Shown here: positions 5,741 to 51,912 of the stretch, in pieces
Layout of the letters: every line of letters starts with the position of its first letter
Numbering within the stretch: position 1 is the first letter of the stretch
Assembly (NCBI GenBank): GCA_035286325.1
Contig: DATHKH010000046.1
Coordinates: 5,537-69,536, forward strand
Direction of reading: 5' to 3'
Length of the DNA: 64,000 nucleotides
Origin: Flavobacterium sp.
Lineage (GTDB): Bacteria; Bacteroidota; Bacteroidia; Flavobacteriales; Flavobacteriaceae
Position numbers and translations under genes: made by a program
The notes under the pieces: model-generated
Seen by the model: the letters and a program-made list of their open reading frames with translations, nothing else
What the model was told of the DNA's origin: nothing
Databases searched by the model: none

Positions 5741-5876
5741 GAGCTGTTTGCTGCGCCTGTTCGCTCTTAGGAGCTCGAGTCCTGCTTTCCGTTTCAATCT
5801 TTTTATTAAGGAATTTGCCTTTCGCTATGCTCCAGGCGAATCCTTAAAAAAAGGATTTCCGCTTCAATCAGGGCTA
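5741..5876 (+). repeat. REP-like palindrome family A, copy A1 (interrupted by a micro-element)
   Basis: GAGCTGTTT[insert]CCTGCTTTCCG...ATCTTTTT-stem/loop-AAAAGGATTTCCGCTTCAATCAGGGCTA; aligns with copies at 23892, 30703 and 34630. Confidence 0.85.
5750..5780 (-). mobile_element. Micro-insertion element copy M1 (31 bp) inside REP A1
   Basis: Minus strand ACTCGAGCTCCTAAGAGCGAACAGGCGCAGC; absent from the homologous site of the copy at 30703-30779. Confidence 0.75.
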
Positions 5877-5885
5877 AAGTTACCG

Positions 5886-23891: not shown

Positions 23892-23968
23892 GGGAGCTTT
23901 TTCCTGCTGTCCGCTATATCTTTCGCTCCGCTGCGCTTTGCAAAAGGATGCCGCTTCCATCAGGGCTA
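23892..23968 (+). repeat. REP-like palindrome family A, copy A2
   Basis: GGGAGCTTTTTCCTGCTGTCCGCTATATCTTT...AAAAGGATGCCGCTTCCATCAGGGCTA; overlaps the miaA stop codon. Confidence 0.85.
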
Positions 23969-24889
23969 GGGCTTTTCGTTCACAATCGAACTGATATATG
24001 CAATGATGTTTTTGTCATCATCAGCAAAATCAAACCATTCCACATTTTCATTTTTCTTAAACCACGTCAATTGCCTTTTTGCAAAACGCCGCGTATTTTT
24101 CTTGATTTCCGAAACCGCAAAATCCAAAGTGAATTCCCCGTCAAAATAACTGAACAACTCGCGATAACCTACAGTCTGCAGCGCATTCAGGTTTTTATTT
24201 GGATATAATTTTTCCGCTTCAGCGAGCAAGCCTTCAGTCATCATGATATCAACACGCAAATTAATACGGTCGTAAATGCTTTCCCTGTCGGTTTCCAATC
24301 CCATCAGAATAGGAGTAAAGCCGCGGGGATTTTGCTTGTTGTTCAAAAAAGAAGAATACGGTTTTCCAGAACCAATCGACACTTCCAAAGCGCGCATCAG
24401 CCGCTGCGGGTTTTCTTTGTCGACAATTCCAAAATATTTAGGATCGGCTTTCTGCAATTCGGTTTGCAGGTATTCGATTCCTGATTTCTCGTAGTTTTCA
24501 ATCAGCGTGGCACGGATTTCAGCATTTACTTCAGGAAATTCGTCAAAGCCTTTTAAAACGGCATCGACATACAACCCCGAACCGCCAACCATAACCGCAT
24601 AATCATTGGTTTCAAAAAGATGCTCGAGTTTTGCTATCGCTTCTTTTTCAAAATCGCCCACGGTATAAGAATCGAAAATCGATTTGTTGTGGATAAAATA
24701 GTGTTGTACAAATGCGAGTTCTTCTGCAGTCGGAACCGCAGTGCCAATAGTCATTTCCTTAAAAAACTGTCGTGAATCGCAGGAAATGACCTCACAATTG
24801 TAATGCTGCGCCATCCGGATTGCCAAAGCCGTTTTTCCGATGGCTGTCGGGCCAACAATAGTGATGAGGTATTTTTTTTTGGTAGCCAA
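23966..24889 (-). CDS. miaA: tRNA dimethylallyltransferase
   Basis: GPTAIGKT, DSRQ, VGGSGLY, TVGYRE, TRRFAKRQLTWF. Confidence 0.97.
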   Translation of the reverse strand: MATKKKYLITIVGPTAIGKTALAIRMAQHYNCEVISCDSRQFFKEMTIGTAVPTAEELAFVQHYFIHNKSIFDSYTVGDFEKEAIAKLEHLFETNDYAVMVGGSGLYVDAVLKGFDEFPEVNAEIRATLIENYEKSGIEYLQTELQKADPKYFGIVDKENPQRLMRALEVSIGSGKPYSSFLNNKQNPRGFTPILMGLETDRESIYDRINLRVDIMMTEGLLAEAEKLYPNKNLNALQTVGYRELFSYFDGEFTLDFAVSEIKKNTRRFAKRQLTWFKKNENVEWFDFADDDKNIIAYISSIVNEKP

Positions 24890-28671: not shown

Positions 28672-29559
28672 TTAAGCGAATTGCCTCGCCACTTTTTCCG
28701 CTTTTTTGCTTTCAGAATAATCGTAAAAACCTTCACCAGATTTCACGCCCATTTTTCCGGCGCGAACCATGTTGACCAACAAAGGGCAAGGTGCGTATTT
28801 CGGATTTTTGAATCCGTCGTACATGACGTTTAAAATTGCAAGGCAAACGTCAAGCCCAATAAAATCCGCCAGTTGTAATGGCCCCATTGGATGTGCCATG
28901 CCGAGTTTCATGACCGTGTCGATTTCATAAACGCCGGCGACACCATTGTATAACGTCTCAATAGATTCATTGATCATCGGCATTAAAATCCTGTTGGCTA
29001 CAAATCCCGGGTAATCATTGACCTCAACAGGCACTTTTCCGAGTTTTTCAGAAAGCTGCATGATGGTTTTCGTAATTTCGGCTGAAGTGTTGTAACCTCG
29101 GATGATTTCGACGAGTTTCATAATCGGCACCGGATTCATAAAATGCATCCCGATCACGCGCTCCGGATGCGAAACGACTGCGCCAATTTGTGTAATGGAA
29201 ATCGATGACGTGTTTGTGGCTAGGATTGTATTGTGCGAGCATGCATCATTCAGCTGCCTGAAGATATTGAGCTTCAGTTCGACGTTTTCTGTCGCAGCTT
29301 CTATGACAAGGTCAACGCCAACGACGCCATCTTTGAGATCAGTATAAGTAATGATATTGCCGATTGTTTTGGCTTTATCGGCTTCGGTGATTGTGCCTTT
29401 TGTGACCATCCTGTCGAGGTTTCCGGCAATGGCCGCCATGCCTTTGTCGAGTGATTTTTCGGATACGTCAATCAGTTTTACGATAAATCCGCTTTGTGCG
29501 AATGTGTGTGCGATTCCATTGCCCATGGTTCCGGCTCCGATTACGGCTATATTTTTCAT
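28672..29559 (-). CDS. 3-hydroxybutyryl/3-hydroxyacyl-CoA dehydrogenase
   Basis: GAGTMGNG, EAATE, NTSS, GMHFMNP, PGFVANR, HPMGPL. Confidence 0.95.
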   Translation of the reverse strand: MKNIAVIGAGTMGNGIAHTFAQSGFIVKLIDVSEKSLDKGMAAIAGNLDRMVTKGTITEADKAKTIGNIITYTDLKDGVVGVDLVIEAATENVELKLNIFRQLNDACSHNTILATNTSSISITQIGAVVSHPERVIGMHFMNPVPIMKLVEIIRGYNTSAEITKTIMQLSEKLGKVPVEVNDYPGFVANRILMPMINESIETLYNGVAGVYEIDTVMKLGMAHPMGPLQLADFIGLDVCLAILNVMYDGFKNPKYAPCPLLVNMVRAGKMGVKSGEGFYDYSESKKAEKVARQFA

Positions 29560-29585
29560 TTTGGTATGTAAGTTTGTTTTTATTT

Positions 29586-29644
29586 AACTTCGTTCAGTTC
29601 GGCTTTGCTTCGCCTGTTCGCTATTGCTCGGGTTAGCCTCGGGT
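29586..29644 (-). mobile_element. Nested micro-insertion elements M3 (outer, 30 bp) and M4 (inner, 29605-29633)
   Basis: Minus strand ACCCGAGGCTA[ACCCGAGCAATAGCGAACAGGCGAAGCAA]AGCCGAACTGAACGAAGTT. Confidence 0.75.
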
Positions 29645-30604
29645 TTTAAAGCAGTCAATAATCCTGTAGGCAACGCGAAGTGCTTCTGTTCCTTGTTCCA
29701 ATGTTACGATTGGTTTGGTGTTGTTGGCAATGGCATCGGCGAAAGTCTCGAGTTCGTCCAGAATCGCATTGTTTTGTTCGACGTCGGGATTGGCGAAATA
29801 GATTTGCTTTTTCACGCCTTCGGCATTTTGCAGGATCATGTCGAAATCGCCCGGATTTTCAGGCGCGTCTTTCATTTTGACGACTTCACATTTCTTTTCC
29901 AGGAAGTCGACCGAAATGTAAGCGTCTTTTTGGAAGAAACGCGATTTACGCATATTTTTCAGGGAAATGCGGCTCGCAGTCAAGTTGGCGACACAGCCAT
30001 TTTCAAACTCAATCCTCGCATTCGCAATATCCGGCGTGTCAGAAATCACGGAAACGCCACTGGCATTAATGTTTTTCACCGGTGAATGCACAACGCTTAA
30101 AATCGCATCGATATCATGGATCATCAAATCCAAAACTACAGGAACATCGGTGCCGCGCGGGTTGAACTCGGCCAAACGGTGCGTTTCGATGAACATCGGA
30201 TTTTCAATCATGTCTTTGGTCGCGATGAAAGCGGGATTGAAACGCTCGACATGGCCGACTTGTCCTTTGACATTGTATTCGTTTGCGAGCGCGATGATTT
30301 CTTCGGCTTCTTCGACTGTATTTGAAATCGGTTTTTCGATAAAAACGTGCTTACCGGATTTGATGGCGACTTTCGCGCATTTGTAATGGGAAAGCGTTGG
30401 CGTGACGATATCAATGACGTCAACGGCATGGATTAAAGTCGCAATGGTATGGAAATTCTTATAACCGAACTCTTTGGAAATTTTTTCGGCATTTTCCTGA
30501 TTTTCATCATAGAAGCCAACGAGTTCATATTTTTCGGATTGCTGTAATAAACGGAGATGAATTTTTCCCAGATGGCCGGCACCTAAAACCCCAACTTTTA
30601 GCAT
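29633..30604 (-). CDS. Gfo/Idh/MocA family oxidoreductase
   Basis: GAGHLG, EKP, GHVERFNP, DLMIHDID; last codons (TRG*) lie inside the micro-element. Confidence 0.93.
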   Translation of the reverse strand: MLKVGVLGAGHLGKIHLRLLQQSEKYELVGFYDENQENAEKISKEFGYKNFHTIATLIHAVDVIDIVTPTLSHYKCAKVAIKSGKHVFIEKPISNTVEEAEEIIALANEYNVKGQVGHVERFNPAFIATKDMIENPMFIETHRLAEFNPRGTDVPVVLDLMIHDIDAILSVVHSPVKNINASGVSVISDTPDIANARIEFENGCVANLTASRISLKNMRKSRFFQKDAYISVDFLEKKCEVVKMKDAPENPGDFDMILQNAEGVKKQIYFANPDVEQNNAILDELETFADAIANNTKPIVTLEQGTEALRVAYRIIDCFKTRG

Positions 30605-30669: not shown

Positions 30670-30702
30670 TGGGCTTTGAAATAGGATTTTATACGATTGC
30701 CA

Positions 30703-30779
30703 TAGCCCTGATTGAAGTGGAAATCCTTTTGAGGCTTTTCGCCGAAAAAGATTGTAGCGGAAAGCAGGAAACAGCTCCC
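30703..30779 (-). repeat. REP-like palindrome family A, copy A3 (uninterrupted)
   Basis: Minus strand GGGAGCTGTTTCCTGCTTTCCGCTACAATCTTTTT...AAAAGGATTTCCACTTCAATCAGGGCTA. Confidence 0.85.
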
Positions 30780-34629: not shown

Positions 34630-34728
34630 GGGAGCCATTTCCTGCTTTCGCCTTTATCTTTTCAGGATTGATATTCCTTCGCTGCGCTTCAGGCAATCCT
34701 AAAAAGGATGCCGGCTCTATCAGGGCTG
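34630..34728 (+). repeat. REP-like palindrome family A, copy A4
   Basis: GGGAGCCATTTCCTGCTTTCGCC...ATCTTTT...AAAAGGATGCCGGCTCTATCAGGGCTG; contains the GNAT stop codon. Confidence 0.85.
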
Positions 34729-35223
34729 GGGCAACCGTTTTTCCATGATAAAATCTTCCATCAAATAACCATGGTCTAATTCGATGTCTTCCTCGCCGAC
34801 AATCTCAAATCCGAGTTTCTCGTAAAATCCCAAAGCTTTATTCGAACGATTGACATTTAGTGTCAATACATCTGAATCGTTTATTTTGGCGATCGCTGAA
34901 ATCCCATCAATTAAAATCTTGCCGATTCCTTTTCCCTGCGCTTCCGGAAGCATATAGATTTTTGGGATTTTAGTCATGTGAATTTTAGGGTAATCATGTA
35001 CGTAACTCGCGAAACCCAACGCGATTCCGTCTTCTTTTGCAATTAAAAAATGATGGCCGCTTCTAAGGTTTTTATTTAAACCATCGACTGAGTAGAATAA
35101 ATCCAACATGTAGTTTAACTGAACTTTAGATAAAATATTTCCGTAAGTTGACGGCCATGTTTTATAAGCGATTTCACTTATGATGCCAAAATCATCCGCT
35201 GTGGCTTCACTAATCGTTATCAT
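34720..35223 (-). CDS. GNAT family N-acetyltransferase
   Basis: QGKGIG acetyl-CoA motif, LNVNRSNKALGFYEKLGF. Confidence 0.92.
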   Translation of the reverse strand: MITISEATADDFGIISEIAYKTWPSTYGNILSKVQLNYMLDLFYSVDGLNKNLRSGHHFLIAKEDGIALGFASYVHDYPKIHMTKIPKIYMLPEAQGKGIGKILIDGISAIAKINDSDVLTLNVNRSNKALGFYEKLGFEIVGEEDIELDHGYLMEDFIMEKRLPQP

Positions 35224-46834: not shown

Positions 46835-48718
46835 TTATTTTTTCTTCTGTTCCGCTTTCTCTTTTTCAAGTTCGGCTTTTTCTTTTTCAAGCTCGAGTTT
46901 CGCCTGCTTGATTTCTTCACGGGCTTGTTCCATTTCTTTCCGGGCTTGTTCCATTTCCCTTTTCGCATCTTCCATTTGCGGCCTGGCTTTCCTCATTTCG
47001 ATTCTTGCCCTTTCCATCTCAGGACGCGCTCTTCTCATGCCTTCACGGGCTTTTTCCATCGCTTCTGCGGTGATTTTTTTTGTATCGATTACAATGACGC
47101 CATCTTTGCCGTTTTTGCCATAAGCATAGGCATAACCTTTGGCCTGGTCGCCTTTCAATACATTCATTTGTGCAATGGTTTCAGGGTCCAGTTTATCCAT
47201 ATCTTCGCTGGAAATAATTTTCCCGTCAACGATGACCATCGGTTTCCCGTCGCCTTTTTTGATGATAATTGTTTTTCCATTGTGATTGCCACCTGGCATT
47301 TCAGGAAGTTCAGGCAATTCTGCCAGTTCCGGTAACTCAGGCAATTCAGGTAATTCAGGTAATTCCGGCATTTCAAATGCCAATCCATCGGTATTGAATG
47401 TGAAGTCAAAATCCTCGTCATCGTTTTCGCCCGAAGCATTGTCATCATGGTTAGACGACTTGTTCCTTAGACCGTATCCTTTTACATAAACCTCTTTTGG
47501 ATCCTCAAAAAAGCCAATCTTACCTTTGCCATACATATCGATATCCCTGATGAAATGAATGGGCCTGATTGGCGTGTCTCCCGAAATATTCTTGGTTTGC
47601 TGGTTTCCGAGTTTGTCCTTGTATGATATCCTTATTGCTGTGATTTCGCCGTTTGCATTTCTTTTTATTTTTGAAAATTTAAAAGTAATTCCGGATTTCT
47701 TCATTGCCGCGGCATTGTCCTTAAATTCTTTGTCGGAAGTATTTTTGTCCCAAGTCATATCGGTAACTTCCCTTGAAGACATAGAAACCGTAGAGCCATC
47801 TTCCAGCAGGATTTGTTTTTCCTGGGCTACGACATTCACCTGGAAATAAAACATAAACGCTGCCAACGCCGGAATGATTAATAAGTACTTCCAGGAATTC
47901 CATTTTTTCGACTGATTTTTGTTTAACATAACGATTCGCTTTTTGATTAATGATTGATAAAAATGATTGGTAATATCAACACAATTTTCATGTGCCGTAA
48001 CTTTCAGTAAGGTGATTTGGTATGATTTTTTAGCTACGCTCTGTTCGGCTTCGCCTCGAGTGTCGGATATTTTTTTGAGTGCCTCGCTGTCAGCTATGAA
48101 TTCCAGGTTCTGCAATATGGATTTTTTATACATCCATACAAATGGATTGAACCAAAACACAATGCAATACAACCTCGCAAACAACACATCCAAAGTATGG
48201 TTCTGGTTGCTGTGCACTTTTTCGTGCTCCAAAATATTGTCGAGTTCCGAACTGCTGTACAACGACGAGTTGAAAACAATATAATTGAAATAGGAGAAAG
48301 GCGAAATGTTCTCATTCGTATCCACAAACCTGAAATCTGCCTGTTGGTAAACCTTTTTGCCCTTCAGTACTTTTTTCAGGGAATAGAAATCAGTAAAGAA
48401 GCGGATTAAAAATGCCGTAATTCCAATCCCGTAAACAATTCCCAAAACCAAAAGCCAATTGATTTCCACGCCTTGCTGGGCTTGCGGCGCATATATTTCA
48501 ACAGGGACATTATTCCAGTCGACCTGTGGCCGTGCATCGACCAAAATCACTTTTTTAAAAGTAACTAATGGCAAAATAACCGCTGTAACTAACCCGAATA
48601 ACAAATACCACCGGTTACTTTTAAAAAAGGTCTCTTTGCGCAGCAAAAAATAGTAGCCAAGCCAGAACACGGCAATCAGCGCGCCCGATTTGATGAGGTA
48701 AACAAACAGCATTTCCAT
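46835..48718 (-). CDS. M56 (BlaR1/MecR1-type) metallopeptidase signal transducer, carrying a 10-aa in-frame insertion
   Basis: N-terminal TM segments, PFSYFNYI, HEKVH zinc motif, WFNP, EFIAD, KKRIVML; follows a BlaI-type gene. Confidence 0.92.
   Translation of the reverse strand: MEMLFVYLIKSGALIAVFWLGYYFLLRKETFFKSNRWYLLFGLVTAVILPLVTFKKVILVDARPQVDWNNVPVEIYAPQAQQGVEINWLLVLGIVYGIGITAFLIRFFTDFYSLKKVLKGKKVYQQADFRFVDTNENISPFSYFNYIVFNSSLYSSSELDNILEHEKVHSNQNHTLDVLFARLYCIVFWFNPFVWMYKKSILQNLEFIADSEALKKISDTRGEAEQSVAKKSYQITLLKVTAHENCVDITNHFYQSLIKKRIVMLNKNQSKKWNSWKYLLIIPALAAFMFYFQVNVVAQEKQILLEDGSTVSMSSREVTDMTWDKNTSDKEFKDNAAAMKKSGITFKFSKIKRNANGEITAIRISYKDKLGNQQTKNISGDTPIRPIHFIRDIDMYGKGKIGFFEDPKEVYVKGYGLRNKSSNHDDNASGENDDEDFDFTFNTDGLAFEMPELPELPELPELPELAELPELPEMPGGNHNGKTIIIKKGDGKPMVIVDGKIISSEDMDKLDPETIAQMNVLKGDQAKGYAYAYGKNGKDGVIVIDTKKITAEAMEKAREGMRRARPEMERARIEMRKARPQMEDAKREMEQARKEMEQAREEIKQAKLELEKEKAELEKEKAEQKKK
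47294..47374 (-). repeat. Coding 9-bp tandem repeat (ELP)x9
   Basis: EMP ELP ELP ELP ELP ELA ELP ELP EMP. Confidence 0.85.
48032..48061 (-). mobile_element. Micro-insertion element copy M5 (30 bp), in-frame in the M56 gene
   Basis: ACTCGAGGCGAAGCCGAACAGAGCGTAGCT encoding TRGEAEQSVA within KKISD^KKSYQ. Confidence 0.8.
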
Positions 48719-49092: not shown

Positions 49093-49174
49093 GGGCGTTT
49101 CCCTGCGGGTCAGGCTTTCGGCTCCATCTTTTTTTCATTCTTCAAAAAAAGATGCCGCCTCAATCCTTAACGCA
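49093..49174 (+). repeat. REP-like family B copy B3 (B-type ends, A-type core) in the blaI leader
   Basis: GGGCGTTTCCCTGCGGGTCAGGCTTTCGGCTCCATCTTTTTTT...AAAAAAAGATGCCGCCTCAATCCTTAACGCA. Confidence 0.8.
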
Positions 49175-49189
49175 GTCTGTAACACAATC

Positions 49190-50470: not shown

Positions 50471-50562
50471 GTCGTTTGGTTGTCTTGCAAAGTTAAGAAT
50501 CCTGCAAAGATTAATCGGTCCGAACGACGGATTTTATCTGCAGATTTCTTTATTTTTGCTTA

Positions 50563-50606
50563 ACCCGAGGCCGATGCGACAAGCTAAGGCCGAACTGGAC
50601 GAAGTT
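50563..50606 (+). mobile_element. Micro-insertion element copy M6 (44 bp) in the leader of the DUF1684 gene
   Basis: ACCCGAGGCC-GATGCGACAAGCTAA-GGCCGAACTGGACGAAGTT between a TATTTTTG box (50551-50558) and the ATG at 50618. Confidence 0.75.
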
Positions 50607-50617
50607 AAATAATTGCA

Positions 50618-51220: not shown

Positions 51221-51912
51221 TGTTTTTCAATTTGCATACACACAAATCCGGAAGCGATCCGGAAGTTGTGGAATTGGTCAATCAATATCCGCAGGAATTG
51301 GCTTCGCCCAGTTCGGGCAAAGATCCTCGGGTTGATGCGACAATCCCGTTTTATTCCATTGGAATCCATCCGTGGCATATTGTAGAAAACAGGGTTTCTG
51401 AAGACTTGGGAATCATTAAAAGTAAATTGGGCGAGCAAAACTGCCTGGCCATCGGAGAATGCGGATTGGACAAAAGAATAGAAATTCCATTTGATTTGCA
51501 GGTTGGCGTTTTTGAAAAACAATTGGCTTTGGCCGAAAGATATCAGAAACCGGTAGTCATCCATTGTGTCGCGGCATTTTCAGAAGTCATGGAAATCAAA
51601 AAGCGCCTCAAAATTTCAGTGCCGATGATCATTCATGGGTTTTCAAAAAATGAACAAACGGCAAAACAGCTTTTGGACCATGGTTTTTATCTTTCTTTTG
51701 GCAAATATTTGCTGCGGAATCCCGAACTTGAATCGGTTTTCAAAAGCGTGCCCGACGATCGGTTTTTTCTGGAAACTGATACGATTGAAGAAAGTATCCG
51801 CGACGTTTACAATTTGGCTGCAAAATATAGAAGCACCGACTTACAAACATTACAAAACACAATCAAACAAAATTTCAGTTCCGTTTTTAACCGAACGAAT
51901 CTAATAATCTAA
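51220..51912 (+). CDS. tatD: TatD family hydrolase, carrying an in-frame insertion
   Basis: HTH, GIHPW, IGECGLD, IHCV, HGF, ETD motifs. Confidence 0.9.
   Translation: MFFNLHTHKSGSDPEVVELVNQYPQELASPSSGKDPRVDATIPFYSIGIHPWHIVENRVSEDLGIIKSKLGEQNCLAIGECGLDKRIEIPFDLQVGVFEKQLALAERYQKPVVIHCVAAFSEVMEIKKRLKISVPMIIHGFSKNEQTAKQLLDHGFYLSFGKYLLRNPELESVFKSVPDDRFFLETDTIEESIRDVYNLAAKYRSTDLQTLQNTIKQNFSSVFNRTNLII
51300..51332 (-). mobile_element. Micro-insertion element copy M7 (33 bp), antisense and in-frame in tatD
   Basis: Minus strand ACCCGAGGATCTTTGCCCGAACTGGGCGAAGCC; removal restores GAA TTT GAT (QYPQEFDATIPF). Confidence 0.8.

Follow-up and report, generated by a model that had tools for sequence, protein, structure and literature searches.

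Insertion sequences of the IS200/IS605 group and their nonautonomous derivatives (PATEs) carry hairpins near their ends, generate no target duplication, and keep a short conserved target on one flank only; the targets of IS605-type elements are words rich in T, for example TTTAA and TTAC. The REPs, which include the GTAG- and CGTC-tagged families and the REPINs, are thought to be moved by RAYT Y1 transposases, and some of them lie inside open reading frames (ORFs), give stop codons to flanking genes, or sit within other palindromes (Di Nocera et al. 2013, PMC3733652). A third group, the RPEs, consists of palindromic repeats inserted in frame in the protein genes of Rickettsia (PMC3733652). The GC42 mobile GC clusters of yeast mitochondrial DNA are associated with an AG target-site duplication, and their units merge and shuffle (Wu and Hao 2015, PMC4478555).

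The 59-nt composite described here, located at the end of an oxidoreductase gene of a Flavobacterium, consists of two members of one repeat family, one within the other, and the family resembles each of these systems in part. Like REPs, its members are hairpin repeats in the range of 20 to 40 nt with tens to hundreds of copies, and they can be intragenic, stop-supplying, and nested in palindromes. Unlike REPs, they lack the GTAG or CGTC tag (their ends read AC(C/T/A)CGA... and ...GCGAAGC, the latter with variants, and GTAG turns up only by chance in some G-T-A loops), they are built from two mini-hairpins with a conserved unpaired head and linker and not from one palindrome, most copies (37/60) fall within long ORFs whereas REPs are mainly extragenic, and no RAYT association was found for the family. 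RPEs are likewise palindromic, in frame in genes, and add short tolerated peptides, but they are roughly 100 to 150 bp and, to our knowledge, confined to Rickettsia, whereas the elements here measure 26 to 33 nt, follow an AAW target rule, and belong to Flavobacteriaceae. With IS200/IS605 and PATEs the family shares end-near hairpins, the lack of a target duplication, and a short conserved target kept on one flank only, the bottom strand of the elements adjoining 5′-WTT. Unlike IS200/IS605 elements, the repeats are ten-fold smaller, several carrier genomes have no Y1 match, and no copy was found beside a Y1 gene. The GC42 clusters are also tiny GC-rich hairpin elements in an AT-richer genome, with substitutions that respect the hairpin and units that merge or nest; in contrast to them, the family produces no target duplication at resolved sites and resides in a bacterial chromosome, not an organelle. 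Since REPs, RPEs, and GC clusters have already been described, nested and intragenic hairpin repeats are known in kind. Neither the repeat family nor its precise landing rule or mode of spread seems to have been described; a literature search, itself incomplete, returned no published description of the family, which is weak evidence of novelty.

The composite and the altered gene end

The source genome (G000) is a Flavobacterium assembly of 2.83 Mb in 207 contigs (GC content of 42.8%, 89% complete), and the window, the whole 64,000-nt stretch of DNA that was analyzed, is its contig C46. The composite occupies positions 29586 to 29644 on the minus strand. Reading the sequence and deleting segments in silico resolved it into an outer element, M3, and an inner one, M4, so that from 29644 to 29586 the order is outer 5′ arm, whole inner element, and outer 3′ arm. 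By family alignment, the 5′ part of M3 (29634 to 29644) comprises the head ACCCGAG, the left half-stem GGC, and the loop bases TA, and its 3′ part (29586 to 29606) comprises the loop bases AAA, the right half-stem GCC, the linker GAACTG, and the terminal hairpin AAC-GAA-GTT (29594 to 29586), a compensatory variant of the second hairpin. M4 spans 27 nt at 29607 to 29633 or, equally, 29606 to 29632 (a 1-nt ambiguity), as delimited by gaps in genes and by filled and empty copies of another repeat; it contains a central hairpin, GC-AATA-GC (29627 to 29620), and a terminal mini-hairpin, GCGAAGC (29613 to 29607). Because M4 is 27 nt long, M3 is 32 nt long (29644 to 29634 plus 29606 to 29586), with the central hairpin GGC-TAAAA-GCC and hence a central loop of TAAAA. 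The preliminary description had correctly placed M4 within the central hairpin loop of M3: removal of M4 in silico turns a partial, non-significant family match (11.9 bits, E = 1.6) into a full-length M3 (18.6 bits, E = 0.011). It had ended M4 at GCGAACAG, and this boundary had to be abandoned, as the element continues through the GCGAAGC hairpin to its full 27 nt.

The altered gene is a 323-aa oxidoreductase ORF of the Gfo/Idh/MocA type (29633 to 30604, minus strand; Pfam PF01408, E = 4.4e-28, and PF22725). An ORF for a 3-hydroxyacyl-CoA dehydrogenase (hbd; 28672 to 29559, minus strand; PF02737, E = 3e-65) starts 26 nt downstream of the composite. T-R-G is encoded by the 5′ part of M3, which also contributes the first two bases of the stop, a TAA that the ORF list places at 29635 to 29633 and that derives from the M3 loop. 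The ORF here ends in ...IDCFKTRG*, with the last residue K swapped for TRG; removal of the 59 nt in silico restores ...IDCFKK*, and the version from which only M4 is removed still ends in ...CFKTRG* at the same stop. Both gene ends had been read in this way before. The accompanying statement that a nested element rewrites the gene end holds for M3 and not for M4, which lies downstream of the new stop and is therefore silent for the protein; M3 alone rewrote the gene end. The change to the oxidoreductase tail is harmless-looking, and its effect on the gene appears minor.

The orthologue comparison drew on 20 genomes from the genus plus more than 60 additional contigs of genomic or metagenomic origin. 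Most of them end in ...IDCFKK*, written as AAA AAA TAA, AAG TAA, or AAA TAG, and a few have other short ends (CFNK* and MNEK*). No orthologue in either set has a family member at the position of the composite, and the comparison shows that CFKK* is the ancestral end. Other members of the genus keep the order of oxidoreductase and dehydrogenase genes, separated by 3 to ∼150 nt, and two of the orthologous spacers (G017 and L049) contain unrelated family insertions elsewhere in the spacer. The closest available orthologous site is only ∼78% identical, and the empty state is thus shown between species. Within the species itself, the search for alleles turned up neither an empty site nor one with M3 alone. 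The spacers of other species (L002, L008, L009, L012, L013, L015, L016, L018, and L019) hold two other repeat families, AAGTTTAAGGTTTAAAG...CTTTAAACTTTAAAC and TTAGCCACGAATTCAC...GTGAATTCGTGGCTAA. An 85%-identical oxidoreductase of Flavobacterium type was also encountered on a 4-kb contig filed under a "Bifidobacterium breve" metagenome-assembled genome (L196, CALPIE020000186.1), probably a binning contaminant.

Assembled contigs from three soil-metagenome runs, belonging to two studies, span the composite with 0 differences, and the composite allele is no assembly artefact; one of the matching runs may be the source sample. In the same three runs, whose assemblies drop rare variants, no joint skipping M4 or both elements was found. 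A fourth public run gave only a 35-nt M4-like match with 1 difference and unrelated flanks.

Hairpins located at the end of a gene could be a selected functional signal, such as an mRNA 3′-end stabilizer or attenuator acting between the two genes or a protein-binding site, and not selfish insertions. REP-type repeats 3′ of genes can stabilize mRNA (PMC3733652), and the element sequence is near-invariant among species whose orthologous genes are just ∼70% identical. However, the elements are missing from every orthologous site examined, orthologues of the oxidoreductase-hbd operon have nothing comparable at the gene end, family copies also occur inside ORFs in both sense (29 copies) and antisense (8 copies) orientation, and an Rfam search of positions 29400 to 29800 with E values up to 10 matched no family, Flavo-1 (RF01705) included. 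We consider a selected signal a highly unlikely explanation, and the hairpins are treated below as insertions.

The repeat family and its landing rule

The 12-mers of the M4 core occur 15 to 21 times in the genome against an expectation of ∼0.3, and those of the M3 tail occur 4 to 6 times. An nhmmer profile built from motif-defined seeds, applied with an E-value cutoff of up to 0.2, retrieved ∼60 family copies, and a strict M4 pattern matched 13 times in the genome and 0 times in the reversed control. The profile was used in place of an earlier structural scanner, which was noisy (73 matches versus 45 in shuffled sequence). Given the 12-mer excess, the ∼60 copies, and the empty control, the two subtypes reported to occur together at this locus are real repeat families.

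Elements of 26 to 33 nt share a common architecture. The head AC(C/T/A)CGA is followed by a short central hairpin that is rich in GC and whose variable loop measures 3 to 5 nt, or at times much more, and then by the linker GAAC(A/T)G and a terminal hairpin of 2 to 3 bp. The loop of the terminal hairpin is G-N-A in 44/48 copies, and its stem varies among GC/GC, AC/GT, AT/AT, AGC/GCT, GGC/GCC, and TAC/GTA, with AAC/GTT in M3. Among the pair cells of 24 distinct terminal hairpins, 41 out of 48 hold Watson-Crick pairs, compared to 28.0 in partner shuffles; the observed pairing was reached in 0/2000 shuffles for the terminal stem and in 25/2000 for the central stem. Both stems are maintained by compensatory changes. 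Nearest-neighbor DNA folding of either strand gave no excess stability (z of about 0), and the structural claim therefore rests on the covariation together with the literature on GNA loops. GCGNAGC and GCGNNAGC are described as "mini-hairpin DNA" motifs (PMC13037366). The terminal hairpin of M4, GCGAAGC, matches the motif as given there, as does the GCG-N-AGC found in 25/48 copies; the frequent central hairpins (GCGATAGC, GCGACAGC, or GCGAAGC) fit these motifs as well, and the central hairpin of the copy here, GCAATAGC, is one base off. Resemblances to hammerhead, K-turn, and integron attC structures, noted by eye, were dropped, as the conserved cores do not fit.

Most of the family resides in genes: 37/60 copies fall in ORFs of 120 codons or more, with 29 reading in sense and 8 in antisense. 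Ortholog alignments place two of these in the window. M5, a 30-nt in-frame sense copy (48032 to 48061, minus strand), adds a clean 10-residue insert, TRGEAEQSVA, to an M56-type peptidase and is absent in 17/17 orthologues spanning the site, and M7, a 33-nt antisense copy (51300 to 51332, minus strand), adds a clean 11-residue insert to tatD that is absent from 23/23 aligned orthologues. Clean inserts of 9 residues, absent from 5 orthologues each, were found in dapF (C121:2475-2507, L271), in a crtY-like (lycopene-cyclase-like) gene (C110:19173-19205, L272), and, in antisense orientation, in an mnmC-like methyltransferase gene (C165:5696-5729, L274). The 9-residue gaps in these three genes set the M4 type at 27 nt, with its last base at the end of the terminal hairpin, and 27 nt is also the difference between copies with and without the element in an unrelated palindromic repeat of other species (GCCACG^AATTCAC). 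One LigD-like ORF, on contig C21, carries two family copies. A further member in the window, M6 (50560 to 50610, plus strand), has an M3-like head, a GAACTG-GAC-GAA-GTT tail, and an expanded centre of 15 nt; this centre (GATGCGACAAGCTAA) matches no family member and could be a decayed nested insert or captured sequence.

The flanks of the copies point to a defined target. The 3′ flank is AAA or AAT in 41/45 parsed copies (background, 6%), the base 5′ of the insertion is mostly G and often part of CTG or GTG, and no target duplication is present at 6 resolved sites. The AAW is derived from the host, as can be seen from the Lys codons at the CFKK site, the conserved KK at M5, the conserved Phe codon TTT in the mnmC-like gene, and the AATTC of the GCCACGAATTCAC repeat. 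Insertion follows a landing rule, N(G)^AAW, without target duplication. M3, at TTTAAA^AAATAA, and M4, at TA^AAA, both conform to it.

Nesting and the preference for hairpin loops

Entry of M4 into an existing M3 predicts that the uninterrupted centre should also occur. A pattern for the uninterrupted centre (CGAG-GC/CC-T[GA]AAA-GC/GG-CGAAC) was searched in 151 Flavobacterium genomes alongside a reversed control. Solitary copies of the CGAGGC-T[GA]AAA-GCCGAAC type numbered 62, in 38/151 genomes (control, 0), and exact copies of CGAGGCTAAAAGCCGAAC were found in two species. A junction pattern consisting of a terminal hairpin, AAW, an outer half-stem, and GAAC identified three true composites, two in this genome (the present locus and one on contig C181) and a single one among 120 other Flavobacterium genomes (in G087); another two matches to the pattern were chance occurrences in coding sequence. 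The composite is thus not a fixed unit present at multiple loci. The inner 27-mer interrupts the central loop of the outer element at T(G/A)^AAA in 3/3 composites, and the three outer elements have three different terminal hairpins (AAC-GAA-GTT, AC-GAA-GT, and GC-GAA-GC). At this locus the inner copy matches a solitary copy on C165 at 26/27 positions, and the inner copy of C181 ranks just 15th of 22 in its likeness to the inner copy here (22/27). As the outer types differ and the inner copies are not nearest relatives, the nesting events were independent; their recurrence, together with the common uninterrupted loops, supports successive insertion and a loop hot spot.

We therefore regard a stepwise nested insertion of two family members as the probable history of the locus. 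In the first step, the 32-nt M3 would have inserted between the final two Lys codons (TTTAAA^AAATAA), TRG taking the place of the final K and the TAA stop coming from M3's own TAAAA loop. Later, the 27-nt M4 would have inserted at TA^AAA in the M3 loop, past the new stop. We infer this order of events, the inner element being the younger. The preliminary description had proposed successive insertions at one site, and the proposal agrees with the empty orthologues, the rebuilt M3, the solitary uninterrupted centres, and the finding that the composite is no fixed unit.

Two other histories would yield the same 59 nt. An M3 already carrying M4 may have been mobilized as a unit from another locus and have arrived in one step. 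Composite units do seem to propagate, as the Flavo-1 repeat carries the same micro-element sub-variant at the same tail position on several contigs, and the second composite, at C181, has a like layout with 83% identity. Arrival in one step, however, needs an outer element that is still mobile with a loop 27 nt larger, and no second copy of this composite was found either here or among 120 other Flavobacterium genomes; moreover, the outer elements of the two local composites are of different types, and the two inner copies match each other at 22/27 positions versus 26/27 for the inner copy here and its solitary counterpart. We judge such an arrival improbable. The locus could also be a mosaic of a 5′ fragment, M4, and a 3′ fragment, assembled by recombination or replication slippage between neighboring or ectopic copies. 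The exactly complementary half-stems of the outer pieces (GGC/GCC), which together form a full-length element of a common subfamily, argue against a mosaic, as do the position of the break exactly on the family target motif ^AAA and the threefold origin of this nested architecture with outer elements of different type. Members of the family do form tandem clusters (C65:8932 and G017:C424), and the head ACCCGAG is present twice at the locus, 11 nt apart; even so, there is very little probability that a mosaic formed here. Stepwise insertion is the reading retained in what follows.

The words TGAAA and TAAAA occur ∼35,000 times in the genome. Only 5 of these occurrences are in such loops, and 2 of the 5 are occupied, for which the chance expectation with ∼60 insertions is well under 0.01; two insertions in such loops would still be unlikely if only one tenth of the words were selectively permissible. 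Other repeats are also hit. Flavo-1 carries the micro-element at the tail position GG^AAAC in ∼9 of 118 motif-defined copies and in the apical loop in 3, and the GCCACGAATTCAC palindromes of other species are struck at one fixed position, once in both arms. Enrichment within repeats could partly reflect relaxed or weak selection there, and some of the Flavo-1 composites, which share a sub-variant, were probably propagated as whole units. The loop insertions are nevertheless precise enough to argue that loops and existing repeats are true targets, a reading that these data support. The earlier suggestion that hairpin loops or existing elements are preferred can accordingly be sharpened to N(G)^AAW, with 3/3 nestings at T(G/A)^AAA and with Flavo-1 and another palindromic repeat struck at a fixed G^AA. 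The preference for loops would follow if the target were single-stranded.

Several observations concern the repeats that accompany the family. A Flavo-1 repeat (RF01705) is located upstream of the oxidoreductase gene, outside the composite (30700 to 30775, plus strand; cmscan, 75.4 bits, E = 8e-15), and others are found elsewhere in the window at 5774 to 5879, 23896 to 23971, 34634 to 34731, and 49104 to 49182. M1 (5747 to 5781, minus strand) is joined to the 3′ tail of the first of these (5774 to 5879) by insertion at GG^AAAC. The genome has at least 150 Flavo-1 copies: of 943 first-look candidates, 150 were scored and all of them matched, 149 with more than the Rfam gathering score. At this density in a 2.83-Mb genome, Flavo-1 resembles a REP-type element more closely than it does a small RNA with a single function. 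Flavo-1 joined to the micro-element is present on contigs C36, C45, C46 (5747 to 5781), C118, C123, C163, C176, and others, and several of these composites have a common long central hairpin, GAGCTCCCAAT...ATTGGGAG, which suggests spread as a unit. In large Flavobacterium genomes, the 27-nt element is found within the GCCACG^AATTCAC repeat (L219, L220, L227, and L228, the last at G008:C1:1811050-1811293), and one such palindrome has the element in both arms, forming a larger perfect inverted repeat. Copies with the T[GA]AAA loop occur in many species with the same flank, ..TTCGTG^AATCTTCGATTTC.. (L300, L309, L317 to L319, and L324 to L326; G000:C92:2949-2983 and C95:1771-1805). On the opposite strand, this context includes a short conserved leader-like ORF (MKSKII...HEH...) before a secreted-protein gene, and it may be another repeat or a conserved regulatory leader.

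Distribution and means of spread

The strict 27-mer pattern is present in 16/24 Flavobacterium species sampled, at 1 to 16 copies each (control, 0), and in two other genera of Flavobacteriaceae. It is absent from 258/258 genomes of 17 other families of the order.

A Y1 transposase, the type of enzyme generally credited with moving such repeats, is not supported as the mobilizer. No Y1 transposase (PF01797) was detected in this genome, which is 89% complete; a search for Y2 (IS91-type, PF04986) gave no match either in the genome or in its control. Five relatives contain seven strong Y1 genes (and three weaker ones) flanked by other REP-like hairpins, and no family member lies within 1.5 kb of those seven genes. 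Across 27 genomes, Y1 presence and element presence are uncorrelated: three genomes have elements and no Y1 match (G125, G128, and G069), and another has 6 Y1 matches and no element (G326). The Y1 genes therefore neither track nor adjoin the elements, and no parent full-length element sharing ends with a Y1 transposase was found. Membership of the family in the IS200/IS605 or REP-RAYT systems is not supported. Large Flavobacterium genomes do contain RAYT-like Y1 genes of ∼150 aa flanked by hairpin repeats of their own (L231 to L237), for example GTTCCTACGGAAC and CTGGACTTCAGTCCAG, which points to separate REP-RAYT systems in the genus.

The strand on which the copies lie was compared with local GC skew in G000, where any bias was not significant (24 versus 19 copies, p = 0.54). 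In two complete genomes (G351:C1 and G008:C1), plus-strand 27-mers are concentrated toward the start of the chromosome sequence and minus-strand ones later in it, and one switch point fits 10/13 and 9/11 copies, respectively; a replication-strand bias may be present.

By analogy with IS200/IS605 and REP elements, the hairpins would form on single-stranded DNA, and the elements may be moved in trans by an enzyme that acts on single strands. We offer this mechanism tentatively, as a possibility somewhat short of an even chance. A broader and rather more speculative reading is that the family may represent a class of mobile DNA in Flavobacteriaceae that is ultra-small, target-specific, and so far undescribed, and that would insert at (G)^AAW with a preference for hairpin loops, spread without Y1 or RAYT via a new enzyme or a replication or repair route, and routinely add 9 to 11 residues to housekeeping enzymes.

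The nested pair at the end of the oxidoreductase gene is a small event, with a three-residue tail as its outcome, yet it is a clear natural record of target choice. The family to which it belongs is unusually small and sharply defined by its head, linker, two mini-hairpins, and AAW rule, and its members are found inside enzymes such as DapF and TatD. It therefore offers a compact system for the study of how miniature hairpin repeats move and of whether single-stranded loops are their targets, a question shared with REPs, RPEs, and GC clusters. For annotation, the family accounts for odd inserts of 9 to 11 residues and for altered gene ends in Flavobacterium genomes.
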